NCBI GenBank assembly: GCA_001824825.1
Contig: MHTK01000004.1
Span: 1 to 61,503 of the forward strand
Length of the DNA stretch: 61,503 bases
Source of the DNA: Candidatus Vogelbacteria bacterium RIFOXYD1_FULL_46_19
Lineage (GTDB): Bacteria; Patescibacteriota; Minisyncoccia; Phycocordibacterales; XYD1-FULL-46-19
Reading direction: 5' to 3'
This document shows positions 6,015 to 54,850 of the stretch, piece by piece. Made by a program: the position numbers and the translations under genes. Position 1 is the stretch's first letter. Every line of letters begins with the position of its first letter. The notes under the pieces are model-generated. The model was not told the origin of the DNA and searched no databases. It saw only the letters and a list, made by a program, of their open reading frames with translations.

Positions 6015-6087
6015 GCCCTGTTAGCTCAGTTGGTAGAGCAGTCGCCTCTTAAGCGAACGGTCGCAGGTTCGAATCCTGCACGGGGCA
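6015..6087 (+). tRNA. tRNA-Lys(CTT)
   Basis: GCCCTGT/ACGGGGC acceptor, TCGC-CTCTTAA-GCGA anticodon arm, GGTTCGAATCC. Confidence 0.95.
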
Positions 6088-6120
6088 CAAAATAAAAACG
6101 CCGTTAGGCGTTTTTATTTT

Positions 6121-6426
6121 GTGCCCCGTGAGCAAGCCAACTGCTTGGCTTGCGGTCAGGATTCGAACACCGGAGTTATGTTTGGTAAGCTTGCCAAACA
6201 AACGAGGTGGTGCCCAGACCAAAGTGAGTGGCGACGAGCTTTGAGTCGCGGGAGAATCCTGCCCCTAACTGCTTTGGTCGTGTGCAGGATTCGAAGAGGC
6301 TAAACATATCGCAGTGATCCGCCTTTGGCGGAGAAACGAGATGTGAAGCCTGTACCGTTCCCGCCCGCCTGCCATCGCCTGCTGGCTTAGGCGCTGGCGG
6401 GCAGGTAGGGGGAGAATCCTGCACCA
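6121..6426 (+). repeat. Two tandem tRNA-anchored structured mini-elements (class B then class A) tailored to tRNA-Lys
   Basis: CAGGATTCGAA...GAGAATCCTG arms repeated twice around conserved cores. Confidence 0.85.
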
Positions 6427-6512
6427 ACTGCCGGACGACTTTAAGACTTAGTAAGCAAAACAATAGCCCAACTTTTTAAAATATGGTAGCATCTAGAATG
6501 TTAACAACTAAA

Positions 6513-6594
6513 GCCCGGGTGGCGGAATTGGTATACGCGCACGACTTAAAATCGTGTCTCGAAAGGGATGCGGGTTCGATTCCCGCCCCGGGCA
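6513..6594 (+). tRNA. tRNA-Leu(TAA)
   Basis: GCCCGGG/CCCGGGC acceptor, CACGA-CTTAAAA-TCGTG, long variable arm. Confidence 0.95.
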
Positions 6595-6612
6595 CCTGTT
6601 ATTTGAAAGACC

Positions 6613-6696
6613 GCTGGAGTGGTGAAATTGGTAGACACGCAGCGTTCAGAGCGCTGTAGGGGCAACCCTATGGAGGTTCAAATCCTCTCTCCAGCA
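6613..6696 (+). tRNA. tRNA-Leu(CAG)
   Basis: GCTGGAG/CTCCAGC acceptor, CAGCG-TTCAGAG-CGCTG, long variable arm. Confidence 0.95.
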
Positions 6697-6723
6697 CACG
6701 TTTCGCTGTAAGCAAAAGATAGA

Positions 6724-6850
6724 GTGGTGGAGAAGCGACTGAACTGCTTCCGTCGCGTGAGAATTTGAAAGACTTTTCGTTGCCAAGCACCTGGTAAAGA
6801 TGACTTGGTCGAAAAGTACCAGCCCCCGTAGGGGGAAAGTCCTCTCTCCC
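6724..6850 (+). repeat. tRNA-anchored mini-element (class C) tailored to tRNA-Leu(CAG)
   Basis: GTGGTGGAGA..GAGAATTTGAA antisense arm, ACTTTTCG..CGAAAAGT stem, CCCCC-GTA-GGGGG, AAGTCCTCTCTCC sense arm. Confidence 0.8.
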
Positions 6851-6894
6851 GAAGGAAATAAACAAAGCGTAGGTTTTCAACACAAAAAAAATAT

Positions 6895-6976
6895 GCCGGG
6901 GTGGCGAAATTGGTAGACGCACTAGCCTTAGGAGCTAGCGGAGCAATCCATGGAGGTTCAAATCCTCTCCCCGGCA
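6895..6976 (+). tRNA. tRNA-Leu(TAG)
   Basis: GCCGGGG/CCCCGGC acceptor, CTAGC-CTTAGGA-GCTAG, long variable arm. Confidence 0.95.
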
Positions 6977-6992
6977 CAAAATTGAAAATTTT

Positions 6993-7126
6993 GAGCCGGG
7001 AACAAGTAAACTGCTTTACTTGTGGGAGGGGATTTGAAGAGGTTGATCATGTTGCAGTGAGCGGAGCGAAACGAGACGCGAAACCTGTACAGATTCCGTA
7101 GGAATCGAGTCCTCTCCCCGGCACCA
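6993..7126 (+). repeat. tRNA-anchored mini-element (class A) tailored to tRNA-Leu(TAG)
   Basis: GGAGGGGATTTGAA antisense arm, AGGTT..AACCT-GTAC, GATTCC-GTA-GGAATC, sense copy TCCTCTCCCCGGCACCA. Confidence 0.85.
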
Positions 7127-7191
7127 GTAGTAACTTGTTTGGCACCCTCCACTCCCCTTTTTAAGCCTTAAATCGAGGCGGATTTTTATCG

Positions 7192-7220
7192 TTGACTTTT
7201 AGGACTGAAAATGTTATAAT
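7192..7220 (+). promoter_or_regulatory. Sigma70-type promoter of the SPFH operon
   Basis: TTGACT-17 bp-TATAAT with an extended -10 TG. Confidence 0.8.
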
Positions 7221-7274
7221 TAAAGAAGTGAAATAGCTGTTTGACAACCGAACAGACATACAAGGAGAAGAAAG

Positions 7275-8633
7275 ATGTTTTGGTTAGGAATAATAATAGT
7301 CGTATCGACTTTCGCTTTAATCCTGATCCCAGGGGGGGTCTATATCTTTCAAAGAACGAAAGACGGAACAGATAACCAAGACATTTGGTTATCTCGTCCT
7401 GTTGTGGCGAGTGCAATTTATCTCGTCATAACCACCCTCTCTATAGTCGGGCTATACGCCGACTATCAACTGAAGTGGCCATACTGGTCATGGACAGTTT
7501 TCATCCTTCTCTTGATTCCCCTCCACTTAATCCTGTCCATCAGAAAAGTGGACATCGATGAGCTCGGAGTCATTCTCTTCTTCGGAAGAGTAGTTCAAGA
7601 TTTGGAGAAAACCGGCCCAGTCTGGATCCCGTGGCCACTGTATCAAATTGAACAAGTGACTGCACATATGCAGGAACTTGAACTCCCGGCGGCATCTTCT
7701 AAGATTTGGCGCGGGGAGATTGATGGTATGCCAAAGGACCAAGGTCTGCAGCCGGCATTTCGAGTAGTTCACCTGGCTCAAGACAATGAGGAATACCTGA
7801 AGAGCCTAAGGAACCTCGGTTACAAGATACCATCAGATGAGGAGATGGTGAAAAATGAGGCACAGGATAAAAGTGAATTAGATGCCTTATTCCGTAGACG
7901 CATAACTTCGGAAGTCGAAATATTCATAAGATGGAGAGTCTCCCCAGGAAACGCCGCTAGGTTCCTTAGAAACTATGGGGGTATCGAAGCGGTTAACTCC
8001 CAACTCGAAGACACCGTCAAAGGGACCGTCCTTGGGAACTTGGCCAAAATGAGCGCCGGAACAGCCCTTACACTCATAGACACCCTCAACGCTCAACTCA
8101 GAGACGAGTTAGACATAAGTCTAATCTCATTAGTACGATCTAATCACGGTTCTTCAGAAATTTCTGAACTGAGTCCGGAAGAATTCCGCGGACTTCCAGA
8201 GAAGGAAAAAAGGAAATTGATCGGCTCTCTCGGAATTGTATTTGAGGAAGCCCGGATCAAAGCTCTTAACCTCAATCATGCTTTGAATAAGTCGATGGCG
8301 GGGGCCGCCCAGGCTCAGTACGATAAACTCGATATCGAAGCAAGAGCTGAGGCTGAGAAGACTCGTTTGTCCAGAGAGGGTGAAGGTAAAGCTGAGGCAG
8401 CTAAACAGTTACTTCTGGCAGAAGCCGAAGGTCAAGCAGCTTTGGCAGAAGTCGCCGCCAGCGAAGGCGGGCAAGCTGCTCTGGCTTTCAAAGCCTTACA
8501 AACTGGACTGGAACAGTCTAAACACACCATCATCCCTGCTGGAGATGGCTTTGCTAGCCTAATGGGCCTAGCCGTTTCCGCCAAAGAAGTGCTGAAGAAT
8601 CAAGATCAAGGAGAAAAGGAGAACTCCGAATGA
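7275..8633 (+). CDS. SPFH (band 7/HflK-C-like) domain membrane protein
   Basis: N-terminal TMs, ELGVILFFGRVVQDLEKTGPVWIPWP, and a C-terminal A/E/K-rich coiled coil (AEAEKTRLSREGEGKAEA). Confidence 0.75.
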   Translation: MFWLGIIIVVSTFALILIPGGVYIFQRTKDGTDNQDIWLSRPVVASAIYLVITTLSIVGLYADYQLKWPYWSWTVFILLLIPLHLILSIRKVDIDELGVILFFGRVVQDLEKTGPVWIPWPLYQIEQVTAHMQELELPAASSKIWRGEIDGMPKDQGLQPAFRVVHLAQDNEEYLKSLRNLGYKIPSDEEMVKNEAQDKSELDALFRRRITSEVEIFIRWRVSPGNAARFLRNYGGIEAVNSQLEDTVKGTVLGNLAKMSAGTALTLIDTLNAQLRDELDISLISLVRSNHGSSEISELSPEEFRGLPEKEKRKLIGSLGIVFEEARIKALNLNHALNKSMAGAAQAQYDKLDIEARAEAEKTRLSREGEGKAEAAKQLLLAEAEGQAALAEVAASEGGQAALAFKALQTGLEQSKHTIIPAGDGFASLMGLAVSAKEVLKNQDQGEKENSE

Positions 8634-9166
8634 CAATCTGGTCCTTCCTGATTCCAATAATCTTTTTCCTGGTCATCACTGTAGCGATAGCTTTAAAGTA
8701 CTACTACAGTCAGAAGACAAGAACACCTACTCCAACTCCCGCTCCCGCGACACCAGTGGCGGCTACCACCCCAAGAACCATCACCTGGCCCCGTGCTAGA
8801 CCTTGGATCATCGGGGTAGTGGTACTCCTACTGGTATTGTGGCTCGGTGCTGGGCCAGCCTACCGATCCTGGAAGGCAATACCTCCAGACCGGGCCGAAC
8901 TGCAAAGCGAGTACTCAGTGCTCGCGACCGCAGACCACTGGTCTGAACCGATTCCGGTTAAACCTGGAAAAATTAGGTTTCTAACTATTCCCGACACGTC
9001 CCTCCGGATCCAAATTCCGGCTGGGGCTGGGGAACCGGGCCAAGACTACATCTTCCCCAAGGGGCACTACGTGAAAGTGCCCCACAATCAAGCCCAAAAA
9101 GCCTGGCGGTTTCGAGCGATTGAAGAATCCGCCCCCGTCCAGGTTGAGGTGTGGTGGGAAAAATAA
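8630..9166 (+). CDS. Hypothetical membrane protein, two TMs separated by a Pro/Thr linker
   Basis: ATGA overlap with the SPFH gene; hydrophobic segments. Confidence 0.7.
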   Translation: MTIWSFLIPIIFFLVITVAIALKYYYSQKTRTPTPTPAPATPVAATTPRTITWPRARPWIIGVVVLLLVLWLGAGPAYRSWKAIPPDRAELQSEYSVLATADHWSEPIPVKPGKIRFLTIPDTSLRIQIPAGAGEPGQDYIFPKGHYVKVPHNQAQKAWRFRAIEESAPVQVEVWWEK

Positions 9167-9181
9167 AACCCACCACCCAAC

Positions 9182-9220
9182 AAGGCGAAGCCGTGCCCCG
9201 CACGCGCTTCGCCTTTTTTT
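9182..9220 (+). terminator. Rho-independent terminator
   Basis: AAGGCGAAGC...GCTTCGCCTT followed by a T run. Confidence 0.75.
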
Positions 9221-9290
9221 ATAACCAAAACCGGCCACAGCTTGCGCTGTGGCCGGTTCATTTAACTTCACATCTTTAAAGCCTGAGAAT

Positions 9291-9536
9291 TTAGTTACAA
9301 CCAATCGTGGTACAGATAATTTTCATAATGCCAAACACTGACACCATCACAAACAAACCAATCACCCCCCACAACATATGACTGGCTCCCTCCCGACGCT
9401 TCACATCATTATCTCCGTTTACTATAAACACCGCCACCCCGTACATAAAATAGAGCAAAGCCAGTCCAAACAGTAAACCAATAATCGGATTTACAATGTA
9501 AGTGTTGATATTATCTAGGAGTGGAAAATCGGTCAT
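9291..9536 (-). CDS. CPR T4SS/TrbC-VirB2-like pilin 5
   Basis: NPIIGLLFGLA..FMYG...KRREG..MLWGVIGLFVMVSVFGI motif. Confidence 0.7.
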   Translation of the reverse strand: MTDFPLLDNINTYIVNPIIGLLFGLALLYFMYGVAVFIVNGDNDVKRREGASHMLWGVIGLFVMVSVFGIMKIICTTIGCN

Positions 9537-9559
9537 GGCTTAAGTCCAACAAATGTAAG

Positions 9560-9919: not shown

Positions 9920-9965
9920 AACCTATAATTTAACTGATTAATTTCTAAACCCTAATAATAAAAAA

Positions 9966-10403: not shown

Positions 10404-10449
10404 AACTAAATTATTTATTTTAATAAAATTAACGGTTATTCATAATTTA

Positions 10450-10827: not shown

Positions 10828-10830
10828 ATA

Positions 10831-11226
10831 TTAAAAACTTTCGGTTTGTGATTGAATAAGGTCTTCAGTCCCAGTCAAAGAGGTCACTACAAATTTTACA
10901 ATTAAATAAGCGGCGAGCACTATCACCAGGCCCCCGACCACGATATAAATCATCGACTTGGCTTTGGTACGCTCGCCAGCATTACTCGAGTAAATCACCA
11001 TGCGCACGCCGGCATACACTATCAAAACGACCGCGAGCGGCACCGCCAGATACACTACTATAAATTTTATCACATCATTAATCAGAGTCACCAAATCATT
11101 AAAATCACATTGATCGTTACCACGCCCACACTTCACCAAGCCCTCCCCAGCCGTCTGAGCCGCCACTGGTAAAGCTAAAAACCAGACCAAGAGGGAACCC
11201 GAAAAGTGTTTTAATAACTTGATCAT
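10831..11226 (-). CDS. CPR T4SS/TrbC-VirB2-like pilin 1
   Basis: GLVKCG..CDFNDL, IVYAGVRMV..KAKSMI..VVGGLVIVLAAYLIV. Confidence 0.7.
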   Translation of the reverse strand: MIKLLKHFSGSLLVWFLALPVAAQTAGEGLVKCGRGNDQCDFNDLVTLINDVIKFIVVYLAVPLAVVLIVYAGVRMVIYSSNAGERTKAKSMIYIVVGGLVIVLAAYLIVKFVVTSLTGTEDLIQSQTESF

Positions 11227-11232
11227 AAAGAG

Positions 11233-12546: not shown

Positions 12547-12552
12547 AAAAAA

Positions 12553-24912: not shown

Positions 24913-25023
24913 GTGGGGGATAGAGGACTCGAAACTTACAGTTTCAGTACAGGTTGTCGATATTTTCATACCAAAGGTCTCTGAAAATATCTGACTAACC
25001 TTTTCAAGTCCTCTATCTGCCAC
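24912..25023 (-). repeat. tRNA-anchored mini-element (class A) tailored to tRNA-Val
   Basis: Minus strand: GATAGAGGACTTGAA, AGGTT..AACCT-GTAC, GAAACT-GTA-AGTTTC, AGTCCTCTATCCCCCAC. Confidence 0.85.
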
Positions 25024-25077
25024 CCAAAATATAAAAAGCTGGAAACTTTAGGTATTCGCTTCCAGCTTATTATTTTG

Positions 25078-25421: not shown

Positions 25422-25973
25422 TCAATCTAACATAATCTTTAACTTCGGCCACTTTTCTAACCACTTTTTACTTTCAATTCTTTTATAAAACCCATCAAGC
25501 TGATCTTTATGAGTGGGAGATGGTTTTATAATTAAATTAACTAAATCGTTAATCCCATGAGGTGCAACTATTTTTGGTTTTTTATTAACTAGGGTTACAG
25601 CCACAGAAGTAGCTGTTTCTACCCATTCTGCCAAGGCTTCAGTGGTATTCAGATAAGGTATTTCCCTATGATGCCATTGGTGTGTGTAAGCCTGATTCAC
25701 TATCTCCCAATCTAAACCCAGGACCCCACTCATATTCTTTGAAAGTTCCTCATCCCCTTTTTCATCTAAATTTTTTTCGTCAAAGTACACCAAATCAATA
25801 TCGTTAGTGTCAGCAACTTCTCTAACTATTCCATGCAAATGGTCCCAAACTTTGTTCCTTAAAAATCCAGCACCAATCATCCAATCTGGAAGACCAAGTT
25901 TTTCCGCCTCGTGCAAAACATTCATCATCCATTCGTCATCTTTTACCATTTGAATTATATCCTTCTCATTCAT
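25422..25973 (-). CDS. Nucleotidyltransferase-family protein (DUF925-like)
   Basis: LPDWMIGAGFLRNKVWDHLHG, DIDLVYFD, WEIVNQA, ETATSVAV. Confidence 0.85.
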   Translation of the reverse strand: MNEKDIIQMVKDDEWMMNVLHEAEKLGLPDWMIGAGFLRNKVWDHLHGIVREVADTNDIDLVYFDEKNLDEKGDEELSKNMSGVLGLDWEIVNQAYTHQWHHREIPYLNTTEALAEWVETATSVAVTLVNKKPKIVAPHGINDLVNLIIKPSPTHKDQLDGFYKRIESKKWLEKWPKLKIMLD

Positions 25974-26069
25974 AAATAAATTGTATCAAAGTTCTGTTAA
26001 ACAGTGTCAGGAACCATACTTTAGGTAAATATGTGTTGTAATATTTCTCTTACTTTTTGACTTTAGTAT

Positions 26070-26240
26070 TGGTGTGCTTCGCACTCTAGATTGTTGTGGT
26101 CCACAATATTTTGTTTTTCGTCAAAAACAAAATTTCCAGACCCGGTCTTAGTTGTTTTTCTTGCTAGAAAAACATACTTCCGACTTCACACATCGCTTAT
26201 CAAACTAAAGCAGTTTAGTTTGAATAAGTCTCGTGTGACC
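26070..26240 (-). repeat. Orphan class-B mini-element with no adjacent tRNA
   Basis: AACTGCTT-loop hairpin, then CGGAAGTATGTTT-hairpin-AAACAAC, resembling CCGGAGTTATGTTT-hairpin-AAACAAAC at 6170-6215. Confidence 0.6.
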
Positions 26241-26586
26241 CGTTACGGAACACGAGTCGAACTTTTAAAAAATGGATTAGGAAGTTAATCGCTGCGTTCA
26301 TGGCAGATGAAGAGTCAAAGCGATCAGTGGATGGAAGTGATCGCGCTGACTTGGAGGTAGTGTAGCGAATGATAAGGATGGGAGAAAGAAGGTCAAATAT
26401 GGCGAGATAGATATAGAGATAAAAAAAGGCGCGCTTCCAGATGGATAGCGCGCCCCTAGTCTTTCGCCCTGGTCGGACTAAAGACGAAACCCATAAGGGG
26501 TTTCCGGAGACTCCTGACCAAATCCTGCGTTGCTCACAAGATGCAAAAACTGGCAATGGAAACATTGTCAGTTTTTGCATAATTCC

Positions 26587-27378
26587 TTATTGTTCAATTT
26601 TTTCTATCAATTTTTTAATATAAGAATTAACATCAATTTTTTCACTATATTGTTTCATAAACTCAACAATCATTTTTAATGTTTTAACTAATACCTCATC
26701 TTTAATGATATAAGCTTTTTCTGTTATTGGTTGAATAATAATAACATTATCGTGAAAAATATAAAATTCCGTGTCGAAATCCATATATTCATCTGGCACT
26801 AAATAAACAATCGTTAGACGTCCATAATGTGACTTCAACTCTCGTAGAGACATTTTTTCAAAAACCGAAAGACTCTTTCTACTTGTGATCCCCTCAAGAA
26901 TAATCGGCTTCTGTTTTTGGGCGACATGGATTCTCTCGATGAACTCTGTCGGTAATTTTTTTAGTGCTGCAAAAGGGGCACGGCTACCTTGAACCACAAA
27001 AACTCTTTCAGCTTTGCCAACCTCAATTATTTTCTCGTAAGCTGTCCTAACTTGCTCATATCCTTCCTTGCTTGCCAGTGTAGTTAATCCAGGTAAAGTA
27101 ATACCAACCGACGAAAAGAATCCGGAAAGCGAATTTTTTATTTCGTTTCTTTCTTTGAGAAACCATAATGGGTAACGTGATTTGGTGGTTTTTATTTTGT
27201 CTACCCAGCCACGATCTGATAATTTATTTAAATAAAAATTTACTGTTGTCCGTGGCTCTGCTACTAGGACCCCTATTTTGGTAGCAGTAAGCCCAACCCG
27301 GCTTTTATTAAGTAGATTTACAATCTTTTTCTCTTGAGTAGATAAACCAAATAGACTAGTTTGTTGTGCATTTAACAT
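26587..27378 (-). CDS. TrmB-like HTH transcriptional regulator
   Basis: FGLSTQEKKIV..EPRTTVNFYLNKLSDRGWV winged HTH plus an effector-like C domain. Confidence 0.7.
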   Translation of the reverse strand: MLNAQQTSLFGLSTQEKKIVNLLNKSRVGLTATKIGVLVAEPRTTVNFYLNKLSDRGWVDKIKTTKSRYPLWFLKERNEIKNSLSGFFSSVGITLPGLTTLASKEGYEQVRTAYEKIIEVGKAERVFVVQGSRAPFAALKKLPTEFIERIHVAQKQKPIILEGITSRKSLSVFEKMSLRELKSHYGRLTIVYLVPDEYMDFDTEFYIFHDNVIIIQPITEKAYIIKDEVLVKTLKMIVEFMKQYSEKIDVNSYIKKLIEKIEQ

Positions 27379-27572
27379 AAATAAAGTATACCACTGACAA
27401 TAATCTTGTCAACAGATTGTGAAATAACCCTTATTTTATAACCTCTAATGAATACCTATCAAAATTGTTTTTAACTAATTTTTTAAATAGACTGATTATA
27501 GATTTTAAGGAAAAGAAGGGTGTTCTTTCTTAGTCCTGTGTGTAAGTCTATGTAAATGAAAAGGGGTCTTCA

Positions 27573-27740
27573 ATGACAAACTGGAGAGAAGTAGAAGGTG
27601 GGTGGTATCGAGATCAATCAGACAATCCAGCAGCTTGGGGTGACTATTCTGGGTCTGGAAACAGCGACTTCATTTCTGATTGCGATCACCTCAATCCCCC
27701 TTCGGAGAATCCCAATCGGCCACAGCCGGTGTACAGATGA
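27573..27740 (+). CDS. Small 55-aa ORF (MTNWREVEGGWYRDQSDNPAAWGDYSGSGNSDFISDCDHLNPPSENPNRPQPVYR)
   Basis: Manual translation; AAGGGG SD-like motif upstream; divergent from the TrmB-like gene; terminator near 27885-27920. Confidence 0.4.
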   Translation: MTNWREVEGGWYRDQSDNPAAWGDYSGSGNSDFISDCDHLNPPSENPNRPQPVYR

Positions 27741-28007
27741 AATAGGACAAATTCTGTAGCTCACTAGCTGGTAAGAGATTCTCAAAAGTAATCGTTTCCA
27801 GTGTTGTGGTTACAGATAACTCTTGTTGTCATCATGGTTACTGTATGAGATTAAGAGCTGTGGTTTTTGTGATAGACTACAGCTTCCGCCAAGGGCTCCC
27901 GAACCTTGGCGGCCTTTTTATTTAGGAAGGGGATATTAGTGGAACGCCACGTGTAAAATTTTATGTGGTCCCCAATAATTCACTCGTTGCCACTCGTGAA
28001 TTTTCCA

Positions 28008-28137
28008 GACCCCTACGGGGAATCTTTCCCTACGGGAACGGTACAGGCTTCACATCTCGTTTCGCTACGCTCACTGCGATATGTTCAGCCTCTTCGATTC
28101 CCCGACGTGAGCAAAGCAGTTTGCTCACTTAGGGTCA
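28008..28137 (-). repeat. tRNA-anchored mini-element (class A) tailored to tRNA-Glu
   Basis: Minus strand: TGACCCTA[AACTGCTT hairpin]GGGAATCGAA, GAGGCTGAACATATCGCAGTG..CCTGTACCG, TTCCC-GTA-GGGAA, GATTCCCCGTAGGGGTC. Confidence 0.85.
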
Positions 28138-28184
28138 CTCAACAAAAATGGCCCGCCATAATAGCGGGCTCATTTTTGTACGAG

Positions 28185-28907: not shown

Positions 28908-28995
28908 GGAGAGGTGGCTCGAGTGGTCTAAGGCACCGGTTTCGAAAACCGGCATACGGGCAACCGTATCGAGGGTTCAAATCCCTCCCTCTCCG
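28908..28995 (+). tRNA. tRNA-Ser(CGA)
   Basis: GGAGAGG/CCTCTCC acceptor, CCGGT-TTCGAAA-ACCGG, long variable arm, discriminator G. Confidence 0.95.
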
Positions 28996-29112
28996 CATCT
29001 AACAGCTAGCACGAAGAACCTCGTTTTAGCTTTACAAAACCACATCACTACGATGTGGTTTTGTAATCTTGAGATGTTATCTTTTAAGATAACATTGTGT
29101 TATACTCAAGAA

Positions 29113-38897: not shown

Positions 38898-38940
38898 GAT
38901 TAGTTTAAACTAAAAAATACCCGTGAGGGTATTTTTTTGA

Positions 38941-39088
38941 TGGGGGGCGGGCGATCTCACTCGTCGCTTCGCTCCTCTTTGAGAACCCACGGTTCTCAAC
39001 GTCTCTTCGCTTAAGCTCGGTCTGCTCTCCTCCACGGAAAAACTAGAGTTTTTCCGACCCTTTTCCTGTTCGAGCCCGCCCCCAAGCA
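38941..39088 (-). repeat. tRNA-anchored mini-element (distinct core) tailored to tRNA-Phe
   Basis: Minus strand: TGCTTGGGGGCGGGCTCGAAC antisense arm, GGAAAAACT..AGTTTTTCC and TTGAGAACC..GGTTCTCAA hairpins, sense GATCGCCCGCCCCCCA. Confidence 0.85.
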
Positions 39089-39113
39089 AAAACACCCTTA
39101 CGGGTGTTTTTTG

Positions 39114-39507: not shown

Positions 39508-40131
39508 CTACTCGCATTTTAAGACATTTAAACATTGACCTTGCTGTGGTTCAGGCAGCTTAGCACAAGCTGTACATTGCTCGGCATTACCACTTAGGCT
39601 AGCGCCGGCCGGTGTGCTGGCGCCCATCAGGGCCGACAAATCGGTAAATTCAATATTACCTGGTAATTCAAAAACAGCTGAGTCGGTAGACCAGTCTTCA
39701 CAACTATAAGTAACATTCTCGTCATCTAAATTAACTGGGCTTGACCGCAAATTACTTTCTGTGGTGGTAGATAAGTCCAGAGCCATGGTCATACCCTTGG
39801 TATCGTCCTCCAGCCACACATAAACCTGACCACTTTTGACAATCACATGGCCATTTTGGGTCGTAGACGCCACTTCCGACTCGAAGTCGGTTCTCATCTG
39901 CCTGTCGGCCACGTAAACCGTGCCGGTGGTGGTAAATTCATCCGCCAACTGACTGAAGGTACAAACTTGAGGCTGATCTACTGACAGCAACTCTCGCAAG
40001 GTTTTAGGGGTCGTCTCTGTTACAACTTCATCTTCAGACTGCGGTGCCTTCGTTTCTGTAGACCAAGCGAACCAGGCCAAACCAATGACAGCAATAATGG
40101 CGACGAGGGATAAAATATGGGTTTTGGACAT
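39508..40131 (-). CDS. Hypothetical exported protein with Cys pairs
   Basis: N-terminal anchor; VCTF...YSCEDW..FELP; C-terminal CTACAKLP...C...C. Confidence 0.75.
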   Translation of the reverse strand: MSKTHILSLVAIIAVIGLAWFAWSTETKAPQSEDEVVTETTPKTLRELLSVDQPQVCTFSQLADEFTTTGTVYVADRQMRTDFESEVASTTQNGHVIVKSGQVYVWLEDDTKGMTMALDLSTTTESNLRSSPVNLDDENVTYSCEDWSTDSAVFELPGNIEFTDLSALMGASTPAGASLSGNAEQCTACAKLPEPQQGQCLNVLKCE

Positions 40132-40195: not shown

Positions 40196-40472
40196 TGCCC
40201 TCGGCAGGAATCTCCCCCAACGGGGGCTGGTATTTTTCGTCTCGCTCGCTTGGTAAAGCTCACTCTCATCGAAAAACCATTCGATTCCTGACGCAAAACA
40301 AGCCCTAAAGCCATCCAGCACGGAGTAGGCCAGTTGTTTTACCTAACTCGGCAGGAATCTCCTTCGACTCAAAATTTGGCCGTTGCCAAATTTTGGTCTA
40401 GGCACCCCCTCGCGCCAAAATTCTACTGAATTTTGACTTCGTGCGCTCCGGCGTTCGATTCCTGCCGAGGGC
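40196..40472 (-). repeat. Two tandem tRNA-anchored mini-elements (class B at 40347-40472, class C at 40196-40292) tailored to tRNA-Arg
   Basis: CAGGAATCGAA ... AGATTCCTGCCGAG arms twice; cores CCGGAGCGCACGAAGTC.. and TTTTTCG..CGAAAAA-TACCAG-CCCCC-GTT-GGGGG. Confidence 0.85.
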
Positions 40473-40521
40473 TACAAACCAATAGTCGCAAAATGTATCC
40501 ACATTTTGCTCGTTTGTTTTG

Positions 40522-41297: not shown

Positions 41298-41425
41298 GGG
41301 TAGGGAGATCGGTCACAACTCTTCTGCTTCGATAAATCTACGCTACGAAGGTCGCGACCCCGCCTCGCGCCGGAGTCCTGCTGGTCTCCGACTTCGTGCG
41401 CTCCGGCTTTCGATTCTCCCTACCC
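41298..41425 (-). repeat. tRNA-anchored mini-element (class B) tailored to tRNA-Gly
   Basis: Minus strand: GGGTAGGGAGAATCGAA, GCCGGAGCGCACGAAGTC..GGCGCGAGG, sense GATCTCCCTACCC. Confidence 0.85.
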
Positions 41426-41475
41426 ACTACTAAAACATACTCCCTCGAACCGGCAGTTCGAGCTCCTTGTTTTAG

Positions 41476-41546
41476 TGCGGGTAGGGAGAATCGAACTCCC
41501 GTCTCAACCTTGGGAAGGTCGCGTCATACCACTAAACTATACCCGC
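41476..41546 (-). tRNA. tRNA-Gly(CCC)
   Basis: GCGGGTA/TACCCGC acceptor, GACC-TTCCCAA-GGTT, AGTTCGATTCT. Confidence 0.93.
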
Positions 41547-45632: not shown

Positions 45633-45640
45633 GACTAAAG

Positions 45641-49100: not shown

Positions 49101-51419
49101 CTAACTACTCGCTTGTTCACTCCCTGTCCCTGCTTCAGCTGGAATGTCAATTTCGCACGTCCCCCCAGCACAAGCCAGCTCTTTTTTAACTTCAGTCTGA
49201 TCTTCTTTTTCATAACTGACAATTTTAGAAAAATCCATATCACCAAAAGCTTTAGATAACTCCAAGTACCTGGCTTCGTCTATTTCTTCGTACGGTGCCA
49301 ACTGATAGACATGCTCACTGCGAGGTAAGAAGGACAGTCCACCGATAATATCCCAGTGTTCGTACAACCAGTTGACGACGGTAATCCACTCATCATTACC
49401 CACTGAAATAGTGACCGATGGGTTATGTTCGGTAAAATTTTCCTTAAGCATTTTCCAATATTCAAGCTGTTCCAAAGCACTCATATCATTTTTGAAAGTA
49501 CTATTGTCCGGGGCTTTAATCGGAAATTCCAACACATAGGTCGTGGCATTCGTCGCCGACTGACCAACCTCCGGATGGTAAGGTACACCTTGATCTTTCA
49601 ACATTTGAAACAAAGCATCCGTCGCTGAAATTCTAATACGGCGAATATAGTAGGCGGCGTGTCGAGGGTGCATACCAGAGGCCGCATCGACGGTTTGCGA
49701 CACAGTCCCCGACGGCTTAACGCAAGTAATAGCGGTTGATTCGCCTACCCCAAAACGCTTAGCATACTCCCGATTTACCTCCAACGCATAATCACGCATT
49801 TTTCGTAAAGTCTCTGCAGTCCTGACCGCCGGTGAGTCCCACTGACCAGTAATCGACACCCCGAGCAACCGCTCGGCTTCGCAGTTAACTTTCCAATCTT
49901 TAGATAAATAAGCGAAGTTCGTCAAAGTGGACTGATAAGTGCCCAGGATAGTAGCGATCCTGATTTTTTTCAGCAAAGTCTCTTCCGTATCTTCCGCCCG
50001 AGCCACCACTTCTGATAAGTTGCAAAACTGTTTGGATCGTAAAATTATTTCCCCACAAGGGTTAGTTCCCAATTGGTTGAAAAAGCCTTCCGACACCTTA
50101 AGGCGACGAGCTGGTAAAGTATGCTTCAAGGCTCCGCGGTTAAAAATTCCTCTTTCGCCGGTGCCACTGGCGACCAGCGCCGTCCACTCGTTTAAAAGTT
50201 CCGAAGCATGAGGCTTTTCATCATAGACGGCCGAGTTATTCGCAAGGCTACGCTGAGGATCAGTCAACCAGAACTGACCGGTCTTAGCATCACGAATGTC
50301 TTTATCATCCAGATCAGATAAGGAAATAAGAGCACTACGCCGAACACCGCCAGCCACCACAATCTCGCCAATTTTACAGATAATGTCATGAGCATCCAAG
50401 TTGGTGAGGCGTTTGCCCTGACGTCGTAACACTCGCTCCCGGGTAAAAACTATCAGTTGACGCAAGGGCTCCGGACCAGATGACTTGCCTCCCATCGTCT
50501 TAAGCCTGGCCCCGGCCGGTCGGAGCTTAGACAAGTCAAAATCTACATCCTGCCCGGCGTACCAAGTCTTCAAGCCATAGGTTAAAGCATCGCACCACCC
50601 TTCTTTACTGTCCTCCACCACAAAGGTGGTAAGTTTTTGACCGGTCTGCTTGGTGATAATCGGCAACTGTTGAATGTTTTGACTTTCAGCCGCAAAACCG
50701 CAACCAGTACCACACATCGAGACATACATAATCTCCGCGAAATCTTCCAGTTTAGACGGGGCGATAAACGAACAGTTATAAGCGCAGACATTGGTCTTGC
50801 GGGCCGCTTTGCCGGCAAACTGCATCAAGCGCATCGAGGGCATAGCTTCCTGTTTTAAAATAGCTTGTCTCACTTCTTCGTATTCGGCCTCCGCCAGCTT
50901 GTCCCCTAAATTTTCTTTCATAAAATCAATATACCGCCCCACTGTCTCCACCCAGGTTTCCCGCCTGTTCTCACCCTCAATCCAATTGGAGTAAGAGCGA
51001 TAATAAACAAATTCGCCCAGCGAATTACGAAAATACTGACGACTTTCTTCCACCAGCGCTTTGACTTTTTCTGGCACCTCACCATGTTCCCGCCTAGCTT
51101 CGGCTCGTCGTTCACGATAGAGAATATAAGCCTTGGCTGTACTTGGAAACTGGCTTAAAATAAGGCTTTTTTCAACTAAGTCTTGGATTTCTTCCACCCC
51201 CGGCAAATACTCTTTACCCTCTTGTTTAGCCGCCGTCGCGGCCATTTCTTGCCCCACCAACTTGGCGACCGAAGCGGCCTCACCCTCTTTACCTTCACCC
51301 GCCGCTTTCATCGCCTTCATGATGGCGTGTTCGACTTTAGCCAAATCAAAATCCACTACCGATCCGTCACGCTTGGTAATTTTAGTAACGGTCGTCAAAG
51401 TAGATTTCTGATTGGACAT
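49101..51419 (-). CDS. nrdJ: Class II (adenosylcobalamin-dependent) ribonucleotide reductase with an N-terminal ATP cone
   Basis: ITKRDG ATP cone, GTNPCGEI, FCNLSEV, TCVKPSGT, C-terminal CAGGTCE. Confidence 0.92.
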   Translation of the reverse strand: MSNQKSTLTTVTKITKRDGSVVDFDLAKVEHAIMKAMKAAGEGKEGEAASVAKLVGQEMAATAAKQEGKEYLPGVEEIQDLVEKSLILSQFPSTAKAYILYRERRAEARREHGEVPEKVKALVEESRQYFRNSLGEFVYYRSYSNWIEGENRRETWVETVGRYIDFMKENLGDKLAEAEYEEVRQAILKQEAMPSMRLMQFAGKAARKTNVCAYNCSFIAPSKLEDFAEIMYVSMCGTGCGFAAESQNIQQLPIITKQTGQKLTTFVVEDSKEGWCDALTYGLKTWYAGQDVDFDLSKLRPAGARLKTMGGKSSGPEPLRQLIVFTRERVLRRQGKRLTNLDAHDIICKIGEIVVAGGVRRSALISLSDLDDKDIRDAKTGQFWLTDPQRSLANNSAVYDEKPHASELLNEWTALVASGTGERGIFNRGALKHTLPARRLKVSEGFFNQLGTNPCGEIILRSKQFCNLSEVVARAEDTEETLLKKIRIATILGTYQSTLTNFAYLSKDWKVNCEAERLLGVSITGQWDSPAVRTAETLRKMRDYALEVNREYAKRFGVGESTAITCVKPSGTVSQTVDAASGMHPRHAAYYIRRIRISATDALFQMLKDQGVPYHPEVGQSATNATTYVLEFPIKAPDNSTFKNDMSALEQLEYWKMLKENFTEHNPSVTISVGNDEWITVVNWLYEHWDIIGGLSFLPRSEHVYQLAPYEEIDEARYLELSKAFGDMDFSKIVSYEKEDQTEVKKELACAGGTCEIDIPAEAGTGSEQASS

Positions 51420-51696
51420 AAATAGGAGTTTTATATTAGGAATAAGAGTTTAAAGCAGACCTTAGGTCACTCATTATAGTACACAGATCAACTTGACCCA
51501 AGAAATAATGTTGATAAACTCACCTCAAAAATAGTTAAGAAATGAAAATTAAAAAACTTCAAGCGAGGGTCAAAATTAACTCGTGATCACAACGTTATTT
51601 CGGTCATAATTCTTGAGTTTTAGATTTAGCTGCAAGATGAATTTAGTCCTAGGGCCCGCTTCATAGCTCGCAACCTAAGTTGAAAGATCCAGGTAA

Positions 51697-52161
51697 CTAA
51701 AATTTCTTCCTGGTAATAAAGCGCGAAAATACCAACAAAAAAATTAGAATGGAAATGCCGGCCGACACTAAGCAGTAAAAGCAGTAAGCGCCTAAAATAG
51801 CGGCTTGCAAATATAAGAGCCAACCGGAAAATCCTAGACCCAACAAAGACCAGCCAGCGAGTAGCCACCACCATAAGTCTCGACCAGTCTCCCGATGCAA
51901 GAAAATAAAAGTCAAAATAAGGCTGTAATACAGTACACCAAGCAGGGCCACCGGTATCACCCCGCCAATAGTGGAGTACTGGCTACCGGTCACCACGTCA
52001 CAACCCTCGACCAGCAAGCACCTAACCGAACCACCTAAAAAGTGTTTGGCGGTCAAATAGGAAGCATCAAGAAACCCTAGTAAGCCCAGAGCGGCGATAG
52101 TTAGAGTTAACCGATTACTCGTTAACTGTAGTTTGGGTGGTAGTGGAACTATTTGGTTCAT
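51697..52161 (-). CDS. Vitamin K epoxide reductase (VKOR) family protein
   Basis: CLLVEGC, SQYSTIGG.PVALLG, AYCFYC; start uncertain. Confidence 0.9.
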   Translation of the reverse strand: MNQIVPLPPKLQLTSNRLTLTIAALGLLGFLDASYLTAKHFLGGSVRCLLVEGCDVVTGSQYSTIGGVIPVALLGVLYYSLILTFIFLHRETGRDLWWWLLAGWSLLGLGFSGWLLYLQAAILGAYCFYCLVSAGISILIFLLVFSRFITRKKF

Positions 52162-52873
52162 TGTTTTTAGTCTTTATGGCCGCTTCAATTAAGTCGGCAA
52201 ATTCTCCCGCCGTTCTAGCCTTGACTTCCACGCCGTCTAAATAAAAAGTGGGGGTGCCACTAACACGAGCTTGAACACCACTTAAATAGTCGCGCTCGAC
52301 CCGCTCAGCGACTGCCTCACTTACTAAGTCAGCCTCAAAGCGGTTCATATCTAACCCTAGCTCGGAGGCGTAACTAGCGAAAGTGACTCGAGCGGTGGTC
52401 GGACTTTGGCTCGCCCAGGCGGTTTGATTGGCAAACATTAAAGTAGATATTTCCCAAAATTTGCCTTGCACAGCGGCCGCTTCACTAACCTGGGCCGCCA
52501 GGCGGGCATTCTGATGCTGGGGTAGTGGATAATGCCGATAGACAAACAATAAGTCATCCCGAAAGTCAGCTACTACTTCTTTTACCAATGGCTCATAGGC
52601 GGCACAAGCCGGACACTGAAAGTCGCTATACTCGATTAAAGTAACACCGCCCGGGGTACCCAAAACGTGATCATCAGCCGTAATCGAGGCTAGATCAACT
52701 TTTACCGTTTGGGGACCACTGGTAGTCCCGGATTGTTGGGCTGACCAAACCACGCCAAATATTAAAGCCACCAAAGCTGCCAGACCAATTATTAATAAAA
52801 TAAATTTTTTAACTACTCGTTCTCGGCTTTTGCGCAAAGATCTTTCTTGTTTAGTTTCTTTGATTATAGACAT
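52115..52873 (-). CDS. DsbA-family thiol-disulfide oxidoreductase
   Basis: IEYSDFQCPAC, RHYPL, VSGTPTFY; N-terminal TM. Confidence 0.92.
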   Translation of the reverse strand: MSIIKETKQERSLRKSRERVVKKFILLIIGLAALVALIFGVVWSAQQSGTTSGPQTVKVDLASITADDHVLGTPGGVTLIEYSDFQCPACAAYEPLVKEVVADFRDDLLFVYRHYPLPQHQNARLAAQVSEAAAVQGKFWEISTLMFANQTAWASQSPTTARVTFASYASELGLDMNRFEADLVSEAVAERVERDYLSGVQARVSGTPTFYLDGVEVKARTAGEFADLIEAAIKTKNNEPNSSTTTQTTVNE

Positions 52874-52939
52874 AAATAACAATATACCATTCTCATAGTC
52901 TTTAGCCAAAAACCTGGTTTAGTGGTAATTAATTCGTCT

Positions 52940-53260
52940 TTACTTGCCAGCCGGCAGATAAATAGACGTTTTACCGGTGATGATTTTAAACAGATTTTCA
53001 ATAAAATCCCCACCGGCATAGCCAATGATAAAACCCAGAGCCGGAGTGAGAGTCTCGAGCCCTAAGAAAGTAATCCCTAAGTCTTCGGTCACCCAAGCCG
53101 CCAAAGAACCAACTAGACCAGAAAGGACCACTCCACTAATAAAATAAAGCGGATTAAAAGTCACATTGCGATAGGAGTAATGATATTTAAAATAGCCCAC
53201 CAAACCCCGCACCACACCCCCACCAAGTCCAGCAAGTAACACTCCAGAAAATATATCCAT
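52940..53260 (-). CDS. Hypothetical Gly-rich small membrane protein
   Basis: Three hydrophobic segments with GxxxG motifs. Confidence 0.7.
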   Translation of the reverse strand: MDIFSGVLLAGLGGGVVRGLVGYFKYHYSYRNVTFNPLYFISGVVLSGLVGSLAAWVTEDLGITFLGLETLTPALGFIIGYAGGDFIENLFKIITGKTSIYLPAGK

Positions 53261-53431
53261 AGTTAAATTAAAAGACTGCTAATAGATGAAACTCTGCTTA
53301 AATCATAACAAAAGTTAAAAAAATTAACTCATCCTTTATCAACTATCTTGAAACTTAAGTTGATTTGGTAAAATTAGACCCGGTTCCACCTATGGTAAGT
53401 GGCCGGGTCTATTATCAACTGTCTCATTTTT

Positions 53432-53722
53432 CTACTCTTCCTTATACCAATCGTCCCGTTCTTGGGACCAGTCTGGTTGCCCAAATAATTCCTGCCGACC
53501 GAAAGTGCAGTCCAAATGGTCGTCTTCCGGTTCTCCTGGTTGTGGTGAATCAGGTGAGTTAAATGGGCACTCCACCGGGTCCACAGTCGCCGGTGGTTGC
53601 CAGTTTTGTCGACAAAAAATCCTTTCCACTGGCCACCGAGTTTCAAAATCAGCTAGAAGCTTGATTCCATCCGCAAGAGTCCAAGGGCCCAAACGATCGA
53701 GTAGTAAACTAAGGTGTGTCAT
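53432..53722 (-). CDS. Hypothetical acidic protein
   Basis: Strong SD AAGGAGGT before the ATG. Confidence 0.5.
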   Translation of the reverse strand: MTHLSLLLDRLGPWTLADGIKLLADFETRWPVERIFCRQNWQPPATVDPVECPFNSPDSPQPGEPEDDHLDCTFGRQELFGQPDWSQERDDWYKEE

Positions 53723-53853
53723 GTCTGACCTCCTTTAATTTGTCCCGATACTTCATCTCCCTATACTCTAGCACTAGCCACCAAGCTCAGCAATTACTCC
53801 AACCCCTTAAACTATTTGACCAAAACCCATCTGGCCAGTTATGATGATCTTTC

Positions 53854-54291
53854 ATGAAAAAAATTACCACTGGCGAGCTGATTAATAAATCCGCCTCCCC
53901 CTGCTTTCGGGTGGCCCGGGGTCTATCTGGACTCGGTCTCGTGGCTACTCGCGACATAACACGGGGTCAAACTATTGTGGAGTACATTGGCCCTCTCTTA
54001 AGTCGGACGGAGGCCGACGACAAAGGCGGTCGTTACTTGTTTGATGTCAATAGTCGCTGGACCATGGATGGCTCCGGCCGGACTAATGTCGCCCGCTACG
54101 TCAACCACTCCTGCCGACCCAATGCCGAGGCCGTCATAAAAAACCGGCGCATTTTTATTACCGCTCTCAAAAAAATTAAACCCGGGGAAGAAATTTGTTA
54201 TGACTATGGTAAAGAGTATTTCGACGAGTTCATCGAACCCCACGGCTGCCACTGTGCCAGCTGTCAAAAGAAGAGCCCGAAGCGAGTCTAG
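53854..54291 (+). CDS. SET-domain protein-lysine methyltransferase
   Basis: GLGLVA, RYVNHSCRPN, EICYDYG, post-SET CHCASC. Confidence 0.93.
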   Translation: MKKITTGELINKSASPCFRVARGLSGLGLVATRDITRGQTIVEYIGPLLSRTEADDKGGRYLFDVNSRWTMDGSGRTNVARYVNHSCRPNAEAVIKNRRIFITALKKIKPGEEICYDYGKEYFDEFIEPHGCHCASCQKKSPKRV

Positions 54292-54319
54292 GACTCGCTT
54301 CGGGCTCCGAGAGGAGCGT

Positions 54320-54547
54320 TTAGAATTTAACGAACTGATCTTGAGTCTCCTCGTGAAAGTGTTCGGCACCCCCATTTCGGATATAGTGCCAGGCCAATTC
54401 TGCAGGAGTCGGATCCCGGTCGATACCCTGAGCTCGCAGAGCTTGGATCGTATAATACCGATTGTCAGCACTCAAAATTTGCGCGCATTGGGCCGCCATT
54501 CGAGCGGCGGTATCAACCACTCCTTCCCTTTCTTTTGATTCCATCAT
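54320..54547 (-). CDS. Hypothetical protein
   Basis: SD GGGAGG upstream; 75 aa. Confidence 0.5.
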   Translation of the reverse strand: MMESKEREGVVDTAARMAAQCAQILSADNRYYTIQALRAQGIDRDPTPAELAWHYIRNGGAEHFHEETQDQFVKF

Positions 54548-54697
54548 GATAAACCCTCCCTGCCCGACTATTCCGTTAAATTACCCAGTGGAATAGATTG
54601 TCTAATCCTAGAGTAGCATAAGGAGCTTGAGTGTAAATACTTTAAAAGTCGAGTGGTGGACAACTTTACAGTAGAATTCCTCGTGCTAACTATTAGA

Positions 54698-54850
54698 TGC
54701 GGAGGATGAGGGATTTGATTCCTACAGAATCTGTTCAGGTTGACGATATTTTTCTTCTCTAATTCGAAAAATATCAGGCAACCTTTTCTAATCCCTCCTT
54801 CCGCTTGGCGGAACCGCCCCACAGGCGGCCTCCGCAAAAAAGCTTGCGGA
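54698..54850 (-). repeat. Class-A mini-element tailored to a tRNA-Ser but with no tRNA beside it
   Basis: Minus strand: TCCGCA-hairpin-TGCGGAGG[hairpin]GGAGGGATTAGAA, AGGTTG..CAACCT, GATTCT-GTA-GGAATC, AAATCCCTCATCCTCCGCA. Confidence 0.8.

Follow-up and report, generated by a model that had tools for sequence, protein, structure and literature searches.

The window analysed here is a 61,503-nucleotide (nt) stretch of contig MHTK01000004.1 from Candidatus Vogelbacteria bacterium RIFOXYD1_FULL_46_19 (assembly GCA_001824825.1), and it contains 11 tRNA genes on which ARAGORN and Rfam agree. Behind eight of them (Lys, Leu-CAG, Leu-TAG, Val, Glu, Phe, Arg and Gly) lies the same layout, a tightly folded, gene-less unit of 110–180 nt that carries an inverted and a direct copy of the last ~20 nt of the tRNA gene it follows. 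Using a 10-mer scan of each tRNA's ends, combined with reading of the downstream regions in tRNA orientation, we recovered the inventory given in the original prediction: ten tRNA-linked units, two behind tRNA-Lys, two behind tRNA-Arg and one behind each of the other six, together with two orphans. The same scan and reading found no tRNA-end copies after the Cys, Leu-TAA and Ser tRNAs of the window.

Read in tRNA orientation, the layout runs from the tRNA 3′ end (a) through a palindrome (T1), an antisense copy of the tRNA end (a′) and a folded core of about 45–118 nt to a distal sense copy (again a, the sense arm). T1 is built of an A-tract, a hairpin and a T-tract, spans 17–51 nt and is either AT-rich or terminator-like; a′ copies tRNA positions ~54–74, and the distal copy starts from about position 57 (‘GA.TCC...’). 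In five of the ten tRNA-linked units, Lys-1, Leu-CAG, Leu-TAG and Glu among them, a′ is split near the boundary of acceptor and T stem by a hairpin, HP1, which adds a constant 23–26 nt; a′ split by HP1 is also frequent in relatives. With DNA parameters, the tRNA 3′ end, T1 and a′ together give near-perfect hairpins (−28 to −54 kcal/mol), and each whole unit is predicted to fold into an a′/a closing stem around two or three inner hairpins. The terminator-like hairpin of the original prediction is borne out by T1 of the Lys, Phe and Glu units and reduces to weak AT-rich palindromes in Leu-TAG and Leu-CAG; a consensus terminator scan of the window called no T1 as a terminator on the tRNA strand, and a promoter scan found no promoter-like sites inside units. 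The further claim that no open reading frame (ORF), integrase or transposase lies inside them holds for shared genes, with the qualification that mechanical ORFs of 60–99 amino acids (aa), none common between units, overlap some of them.

The cores of the window fall into four classes: A (Lys-2, Glu, Leu-TAG, Val and orphan 2), C, a shorter relative of A (Leu-CAG and Arg-2), B (Lys-1, Arg-1, Gly and, roughly, orphan 1) and D (Phe). A class-A covariance model, R1, was built on four class-A cores, and its scores are given here in bits. On the forward strand, Lys unit 1 (6089–6263) consists of T1 (6089–6120), the acceptor part of a′ (6121–6130), HP1 (6131–6153, loop AACTGCTT), the T part of a′ (6157–6168), a class-B core (6169–6253) and a truncated sense arm (6254–6263), its a′ matching tRNA-Lys at 22 of 22 positions. 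Lys unit 2 (6280–6425; 79.7 bits) follows with the T part of a′ (6280–6295), a class-A core (6296–6413) into whose HP3 loop a GC-rich hairpin is inserted at about 6357–6400, and a sense arm (6414–6425). The Leu-CAG unit (6698–6849; 25.9 bits) has a weak T1, an a′ divided by HP1 (6734–6756) into acceptor (6724–6733) and T (6757–6769) parts, a class-C core (6770–6837) and a sense arm (6838–6849). The Leu-TAG unit (6978–7124; 95.4 bits) shares this arrangement, with a weak T1, acceptor part 6993–7001, HP1 7002–7023, T part 7024–7038, a class-A core (7039–7106) and a sense arm (7107–7124) in which 16 nt are identical to the tRNA end.

The remaining units lie on the reverse strand. The Val unit (24913–25076; 82.3 bits) comprises T1 (25026–25076), a′ (25003–25025), a class-A core (24931–25002) and a sense arm (24913–24930), and both of its arms have CCTCTATC where tRNA-Val has CCTGTATC. 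The highest score belongs to the Glu unit (28008–28183; 103.4 bits), with T1 at 28139–28183, acceptor part 28130–28138, HP1 28107–28129, T part 28093–28106, a class-A core at 28025–28092 and a sense arm at 28008–28024. The Phe unit (38912–39112) combines T1 (39088–39112), an a′ matching at 20/20 positions (39068–39087), the class-D core (38955–39067), a sense arm (38942–38954) and a second terminator-like hairpin (38912–38938). Behind tRNA-Arg, unit 1 (40347–40520) carries T1 (40473–40520), a 20/20 a′ (40453–40472), a class-B core (40360–40452) and a truncated sense arm (40347–40359), and unit 2 (40196–40346; 30.6 bits) carries the T part of a′ (40280–40292), a class-C core (40213–40279) and a sense arm (40196–40212) whose 17 nt are identical to the tRNA end. 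The Gly unit (41298–41474) is made up of T1 (41428–41474), a′ (41409–41427), a class-B core (41311–41408) and a sense arm (41298–41310). Orphan 1 (26089–26262) has a degenerate copy of the tRNA-Glu 3′ end (about 26235–26262), HP1 (26201–26222) and a class-B-like core. In the relative L018 (L numbers denote the individual loci compared) the homologous sequence lies directly behind tRNA-Glu; here the orphan is separated from tRNA-Glu by about 2 kb of low-GC apparent cargo and the Glu unit. Orphan 2 (54699–54850; 51.5 bits) has T1- and HP1-like hairpins (about 54805–54850), a′ (54786–54804), a class-A core (54717–54785) and a sense arm of tRNA-Ser type (54699–54716), with no tRNA upstream within the window. 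This arm and its next 22 nt (CCGCATCTAATAGTTAGCACGAGGAA, 54673–54716) match the end and flank of tRNA-Ser(CGA) (CCGCATCTAACAGCTAGCACGAAGAA, 28978–29021) at 23/26 positions, 25.7 kb apart and on opposite strands, a resemblance that would imply a rearrangement or duplication.

The arms are specific to the tRNA they adjoin. We compared the window with 80 loci from Paceibacteria-type genomes, collected via the neighbouring LepA gene, and three closer syntenic contigs (83 loci). Of 173 tRNAs, counted over the window plus the related loci, 38 had ≥9 nt antisense to their own 3′ end within 400 nt downstream and 3 had such a match upstream, compared with about 8.7 expected when another tRNA's arm was used. 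The covariance model found 17 copies in the same material, 15 of which lie 43–229 nt downstream of a co-oriented tRNA. An exact-pattern scan of metagenome contigs yielded at least 118 class-A stretches, and 80 of the loci were used for details. There, 51 of 83 cores have, no more than 400 nt upstream, a co-oriented gene for a tRNA, with 17 amino-acid kinds represented, or for a transfer-messenger RNA (tmRNA), and all 54 cores with an upstream tRNA or tmRNA in the locus share the orientation of that gene. Outside the conserved T-loop, the metagenome sense arm matches its own tRNA at 10.8/13 positions versus 6.9 for other tRNAs; matches of ≥12 occur in 31/51 units versus 0% of controls. Counted by hand over 15 positions, 23/54 metagenome sense arms are perfect (15/15). 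Arms are thus clearly closer to the adjacent tRNA than to others, as had been claimed. At L062:13001–13081 one class-A core lies downstream of tRNA-Arg in inverted orientation, the outcome to be expected if the core can be flipped when a′ and a, as inverted copies, recombine.

Cores, in turn, are shared between unrelated tRNAs. The Lys-2 and Glu cores, described from the outset as near-identical, contain blocks of about 30 and 22 nt with one mismatch and differ by a replaced apical loop, while their arms are unrelated; the class-D core of the window Phe unit recurs at tRNA-Phe in L018 and at tRNA-Arg in L027. The same core classes occur with many arms, and arms and cores reassort. Class A, the best-sampled class, forms a three-way junction in which 27 of 29 pairs show double changes in the 17-copy model alignment, and paired cells amount to 91% versus 66% after shuffling and at most 53% with partners slid; these figures come from a model-fitted alignment and so lean towards structure, yet the margin is large. 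The covarying helices are the a′/a closing stem, HP2 and HP3, and conserved unpaired positions comprise the junctions ..TYGAA-RA.. and ..GTAC.G.., the GTA triloop of HP3 and a ‘GA’ before the sense arm. In class B, covariation in the consensus was confined to the first helix (..CGGAG.../...GAG..CGG), MAFFT alignment having failed on the variable hairpins.

The folded form appears to be selected on one strand. On the tRNA-sense strand of the class-A model alignment, G·T pairs outnumber A·C pairs by 30 to 5, and in pattern-defined sets, which impose no pairing requirement, the ratio is 6 to 1 in HP3 and 24 to 8 in the inner closing stem with one ambiguous column excluded. Because G·T exceeds A·C on that strand, this points to selection on the single-stranded form of the tRNA-sense strand, a bias that fits RNA as well as single-stranded DNA and does not distinguish between them.

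Comparison of orthologous loci revealed gain and loss of units in otherwise stable surroundings. Relatives keep the order of genes around tRNA-Gly, tRNA-Arg and tRNA-Phe. At tRNA-Arg the flank follows directly in L018, an empty site, whereas the close relative L021 has ~270 nt extra directly after ...GGGCAC, with AAAAAT at both joints. This extra sequence contains T1, a′ and a class-B core, then a sense arm that is degenerate and one more hairpin. At tRNA-Phe, the window has a single class-D unit, L018 has two units, one of class D and one of class B, and L021 has a lone class-B unit that includes HP1. Orthologous sites in related genomes are occupied in 11/57 (Arg), 6/41 (Phe) and 5/27 (Gly) cases, and overall 26 of 162 tRNAs in relatives (16%) carry units versus 8/11 in the window; tandem units occur in the window, L018 and L027. 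A strain ~93% identical keeps the same units, with change mostly in the apical part of one core hairpin. Unit turnover is slower than strain divergence and faster than genus divergence. The mobile system with rewritten arms of the original prediction accordingly stands as far as the units behave as insertable, given the patchy occupancy, the empty and occupied pair and the class swaps; as to rewriting, the data extend to the pairing of the same core classes with many arms and to the reassortment of the two.

Two neighbouring loci vary in their own right. tRNA-Gly(CCC) and its unit (window 41298–41546) lie between FtsB-like and RNHCP genes, also in L015, and are both absent at the same position in L018 (10384–10394) and L021 (10384–10392), where the two genes are 7–9 nt apart, so that the tRNA-Gly(CCC) gene itself is variable at this locus. 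Just beyond the two Arg units, a 207-aa ORF without a Pfam match (39508–40131) has no counterpart at this position in L018 or L021, and in L015 the place is taken by other genes; the ORF is probably cargo of the tRNA-Arg hotspot.

Units also lie at the ends of cassettes in mixed arrays. In L157, tRNA-Glu is followed by T1-a′-HP1-core B-a, then by a cassette of promoter, ORF, terminator and an a-type end (a*), then by the same T1-a′-HP1 with core A-a and the flank, all joints falling immediately after GGGTCAC. L107 contains eight tRNA-Tyr-type ends, spaced 0.2–1.2 kb apart, between empty units and single-gene cargo cassettes (RhuM/Fic, MOSC, zeta toxin), each cargo cassette having its own unstructured a-type end, and L155 has four tRNA-Asn-type ends in a similar arrangement with a TrmB-like gene as cargo. 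From these layouts it follows that the docking sites of cargo cassettes are also those of empty units, and that newcomers push older ones outwards. In L141, ARAGORN missed a tRNA-Asn owing to a ~280-nt insertion in the anticodon loop. Behind this tRNA comes a 13-kb island with a large serine recombinase gene in convergent orientation, genes of a type III restriction-modification system and one for an AAA_21 ATPase; a complete class-A unit with tRNA-Asn arms follows about 13 kb further on. Large serine recombinase genes also adjoin tRNA-Glu in L021 and tRNA-Arg in L074, with a fragment behind a unit in L128; this is the only recombinase seen at such sites, and it resides in separate, larger islands. 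Within the window, GC content is 0.38 versus about 0.46 from the Glu unit to orphan 1 (26000–28000). This stretch, which holds a TrmB-like regulator (26587–27378) and an orphan 121-aa ORF, has the look of cargo that entered at tRNA-Glu; just past it comes a gene for a PF06042 nucleotidyltransferase (25422–25973).

The reading we favour, which we judge about as probable as its negation on the combined analysis, is that the units are small, gene-less, non-autonomous insertion cassettes docking at tRNA and tmRNA 3′ ends in Patescibacteria, with an a′/a stem that would rebuild the docking site in a folded single strand. This is closest to one of the roles first proposed, a mini integrative element bounded by tRNA-3′ direct repeats, which fits best. 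One cassette would span from just after one ‘...CAC’ tRNA-end copy to the next, so that the distal copy would recreate the docking site for a later insertion, and cargo cassettes (promoter, one gene and their own a-type end) would share these sites and give mixed arrays. Once the tRNA-sense strand is single-stranded, a′ could pair with a to form a double-stranded replica of the docking site, with the three-way junction of the core at one end of the stem and T1 at the other. A recombinase encoded elsewhere might then carry out strand exchange, somewhere within the shared a segment, that links the end of the tRNA gene to this folded site, as in the reactions integron attC × attI and CTX-phage attP(+) × dif; because recombination would require that segment, arm and tRNA would match. 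After insertion, a-T1-a′ would form a long hairpin in which the selected tRNA sequence may serve to homogenise a′. Such templated correction is an established process at quasi-palindromes, and its action on the units would be an extension of it. Hand tallies favour such homogenisation, because units with a perfect sense arm, presumably recent (for example L089), tend to have a less perfect a′ (about 3.8/20 mismatches), and those with decayed sense arms have nearly perfect a′ (about 2.1/20). The cassette reading explains together why pairing rather than sequence is selected, why one defined strand folds, why units stand at cassette ends and form tandem arrays, and why they lack genes.

Several results weigh against this reading. 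No credible excised circle or empty-site joint, and no single-stranded intermediate, was found in the assembled contigs of public runs, where tRNA cross-mapping from other organisms was dominant. No recombinase was identified in or next to the window units among the window ORFs scanned, nor any tyrosine recombinase, and large serine recombinases act on double-stranded DNA and need no hairpins. The repeated segment, about 17–30 nt, is variable in extent, its left edge mostly falling at T-loop position 54–60 and including the whole T arm in L079. In several window units (Lys-1, Arg-1, Gly and Phe) the sense arm is truncated although a′ is perfect, so the a′/a stem is not always kept, and the less perfect a′ of presumably recent units does not fit a′ as a targeting guide. 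How one core class came by the arms of 17 tRNA kinds and tmRNA is unexplained by it, and an excess of G·T over A·C is a classic RNA signature that is not specific to single-stranded DNA.

Set beside known systems, the units resemble integron attC sites, which likewise are structured, imperfect hairpins at the cassette 3′ end with structure conserved above sequence, stand in arrays beside a fixed docking site, include gene-less cassettes and fold from one defined strand. In the units, too, the a′/a stem, HP2 and HP3 covary, and they lie at the 3′ side of cassette boundaries in L157, L107 and L155. In contrast to integrons, they dock at tRNA or tmRNA 3′ ends, their stem copies the docking site, their loop is a conserved three-way junction and the accompanying cargo cassettes carry their own promoters. 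Unit junctions read ...CAC followed by A-rich sequence, and the inner ends of the two arms are TYGAA and GA.TCC; no R or L boxes with GTTRRRY were seen by eye and no IntI was found among the scanned window ORFs, no attC model search having been made. A second likeness is to the CTX-phage type of integrative mobile elements exploiting Xer recombination (IMEX). CTX-phage attP(+) is a single-stranded hairpin that mimics dif and is integrated by host XerCD. As there, inverted and direct copies of the target flank a spacer and are predicted to fold in one strand so as to rebuild the target, the strand asymmetry being in keeping with a defined folding strand, the product of integration reads target, element, inverted copy, spacer and target copy, and tandem arrays form; the units differ in targeting a tRNA end rather than dif and in being 110–180 nt long without genes, and no filamentous-phage functions or Xer sites were identified at them.

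Islands and prophages at tRNA and tmRNA genes (Islander, PMC4383910), including tycheposons (doi 10.1101/2020.12.28.424599), use the same targets, are bounded by a direct repeat of the tRNA 3′ part, are pushed outwards by successive insertions and carry cargo of defence or accessory type. No inverted copy or hairpin is described for tycheposon attachment sites (doi 10.1101/2020.12.28.424599). The units likewise lie between directly repeated copies of the tRNA 3′ segment and leave the tRNA intact, but islands are kilobases long and encode an integrase, whereas the units have no integrase or conserved ORF. To our knowledge, other tRNA-targeting elements such as islands and prophages lack both the inverted copy and a covarying folded core. 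Casposons and CRISPR-repeat-type insertion by Cas1 resemble the units in a long duplication of a target segment at the tRNA 3′ end. Family 2 casposons produce 14–15 bp target duplications at tRNA 3′ ends. The units differ in lacking casposon-type terminal inverted repeats and in the variable length of the duplicated segment; no Cas1 was identified near them, although no search aimed at Cas1 was made. They also differ from miniature inverted-repeat transposable elements, since the inverted arms change with each tRNA and equal the target rather than being constant, and there is no short fixed target-site duplication. The units thus lack defining features of integrons (IntI, R and L boxes) and of islands (an internal integrase), and no Xer or dif context was identified for them; their layout is consistent with attC-like or CTX-like action; a literature search found no description of such units, and a cassette-insertion system with tRNA-end docking sites is apparently undescribed. 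At the gathering threshold, Rfam, whose models include hammerhead, tRNA-like, YrlA and T-box RNAs, recognised the 11 tRNAs only and no family for the units, and with E values up to 10 it gave only chance-level microRNA and small-RNA matches on 5600–7300. Phage and plasmid collections contained no similarity to the units, and two class-A patterns had 0 matches in viral contigs.

Other explanations draw on much of the same evidence. We consider it unlikely, while leaving some room for an RNA role, that the units function as RNA, being read-through trailers or small RNAs transcribed with the tRNA whose spread is secondary: the a′/a stem with HP1 might mimic an acceptor–T minihelix, or a′ might pair with the tRNA 3′ half, with proposed roles in tRNA 3′ processing, quality control, regulation or as a decoy for tRNA-binding enzymes or toxins. 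Strong covariation, conserved junction nucleotides, the GUA triloop of HP3, enrichment of G·U-type wobble on the tRNA-sense strand, an orientation always that of the tRNA, the position of HP1 near the place at which, in a real tRNA, the acceptor/T helix joins the body and the retention of units in the strain about 93% identical to the window would all suit such a function. But in several units a good terminator, T1, stands between tRNA and unit with no internal promoter-like site, 16% occupancy in relatives is patchy, the same tRNA there has different core classes or none, units also occur kilobases from any tRNA between cargo genes, and Rfam has no match. The pre-tRNA trailer put forward in the original prediction likewise drew no support from the promoter or terminator scans; three small metatranscriptomes (contigs, same study) contained no signal from the organism, at a depth too low to weigh against an RNA function. 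That the units are passive scars seems to us quite unlikely. On that account, repeated integration and decay of larger tRNA-targeting islands would leave the direct repeats, and template switching at the terminator palindrome and the palindromic T-loop (TTCGAA) would make the inverted copy, with no mobility or function of the units' own. Serial integrations at the same tRNAs do occur (as in L086, in L141 and in the low-GC stretch that parts orphan 1 from the Glu unit), the direct-inverted-direct layout is an established product of template switching at quasi-palindromes in tandem-inversion duplications, and many sense arms have decayed. Scars would not retain compensatory changes in 27/29 core pairs across unrelated genomes, 17 tRNA kinds and tmRNA, nor bring near-identical cores behind Lys and Glu in one genome, and at least 118 exact metagenome pattern matches with intact arms speak against decay.

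Enzymes acting on the units in other ways were weighed in the same manner. HUH enzymes of the IS200/IS605 or REP/RAYT-like kind, or another structure-specific nuclease, might peel and paste the units, cleaving on the left after ‘...CAC’ of the target and on the right after the unit's own ‘...CAC’, both placed by the guide a′ across T1 or the core. The substrates of such enzymes are similarly hairpin-rich and strand-specific, inserting 3′ of a short guide-paired target with no classical target duplication; the units, for their part, are inserted directly 3′ of a sequence equal to their own right end with no separate target duplication, have hairpins on one strand only, and have an a′ complementary to both candidate cleavage-site segments. 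We nevertheless find this account as unlikely as that of passive scars: known guides of the family are 4 nt long and a′ about 20 nt, the target is contained in full in the units, a′ is imperfect in apparently recent units, no TnpA or RAYT was found near the units, and a tblastn search of 1.9 Mb of related loci found no IS200-type TnpA and nothing below E = 0.6, which is weak evidence as the query was approximate. More generally, a guide-like or REP-like substrate of an enzyme encoded elsewhere, another of the roles first suggested, is possible. Less probable again, in our view, is that a-T1-a′ is a double-stranded dyad site for the large serine recombinases directed at these tRNA ends. Since the sites of serine recombinases have dyad symmetry, an element carrying a tRNA end as one half-site would naturally carry an inverted copy as the other; a-T1-a′ is a near-perfect palindrome, and large serine recombinase genes are convergent with and adjacent to tRNA or a-sites in L021, L074, L128 (the fragment) and L141. 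Yet the half-sites are separated by T1 (17–51 nt) or the core (about 45–118 nt), too far for a ~50-bp site, covariation of the core hairpins is needless for a double-stranded site, and the cargo cassettes of the same arrays end in different, unstructured a-type sites.

More specific candidates were rejected. A hammerhead-like motif (GCAGUGA...GAAAC) in the Lys, Glu and Leu-TAG cores is one nucleotide short, unconserved in other class-A cores and without a match to an Rfam hammerhead model even at E = 10. A primer-binding site for tRNA-primed reverse transcription does not agree with a′, which mirrors genomic sequence past the discriminator (CAAAA) rather than the mature CCA end, and no reverse transcriptase was seen. 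As a TnpB or IscB guide RNA, the ‘guide’ would match the occupied locus with its intact tRNA and be self-targeting, and no TnpB-sized ORF lies nearby; an IS110 bridge RNA is not compatible with arms complementary to each other over about 20 nt and the lack of two internal loops. Insertion inside the T-loop, the distal copy being the displaced native 3′ end, fits the Glu island with orphan 1 and is contradicted by L018 versus L021 and by the L157 and L107 arrays, where unit boundaries follow ...CAC.

Beyond the insertion-cassette reading itself, we tentatively raise a stronger version that we think rather improbable: the units might be the cis half of an undescribed pairing-guided insertion system, in which a scaffold of ~50–120 nt and a ~20-nt arm pair (a′, a) would specify any tRNA or tmRNA 3′ end, a small trans-acting nuclease or recombinase would work on single-stranded DNA, and retargeting would proceed by copying arms across the T1 and core hairpins. 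If true, this would be a natural, compact, programmable DNA-insertion device and categorically new. A large share of bacterial diversity belongs to Patescibacteria, whose tiny genomes are thought to hold few classical mobile elements. If widespread, a gene-less cassette family with sites at essentially every tRNA kind, shared with defence and toxin cassettes, would be a main route of genome flux in the candidate phyla radiation. A folded site that rebuilds its target, with a constant scaffold and target-specific arms, would stand between sequence-specific integrases and guide-programmed systems, and a compact tool for inserting DNA at chosen sites could come from identification of the enzyme. 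In practice, the units, together with the intron-bearing or fragmentary copies of tRNAs around them, cause assemblies to break at tRNA genes and mislead tRNA callers.

Other tRNA-associated features accompany the units. Upstream of the real tRNA-Lys gene (window 5773–5960), two extra copies of its first 19 nt (5778–5796 and 5901–5919) are each preceded by a −10-like box (TAATAAT or TTATAAT) and followed by a GC-rich hairpin (5797–5850 and 5920–5958). They look like a 5′-side counterpart of the 3′ units, namely D-loop insertions bringing a new promoter and 5′ end. A GC-rich hairpin (GCCCGCCTGCCAT...GGCGGGC) occurs in three places, in the HP3 loop of Lys-2 (6357–6400), after a tRNA-Lys 5′ fragment (5920–5958) and in a tRNA-Arg unit (L015:11720–11775), and may be a separate mini-insertion. 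At L015:10400–10920, just upstream of an intact tRNA-Gly, a 90-aa GIY-YIG nuclease gene with 13-nt inverted repeats on either side (CCCACACACTAAC / GTTAGTGTGTGGG) interrupts a tRNA-Gly pseudocopy in its D-loop; it is a different kind of element invading tRNA genes. Finally, insertions of about 280–300 nt interrupt the anticodon loops of tRNA-Phe (L015:13946–14290) and tRNA-Asn (L141, reverse strand, 84–434; L128:about 10900–11185); they are group-I-intron-like by size and position, and ARAGORN misses these genes.

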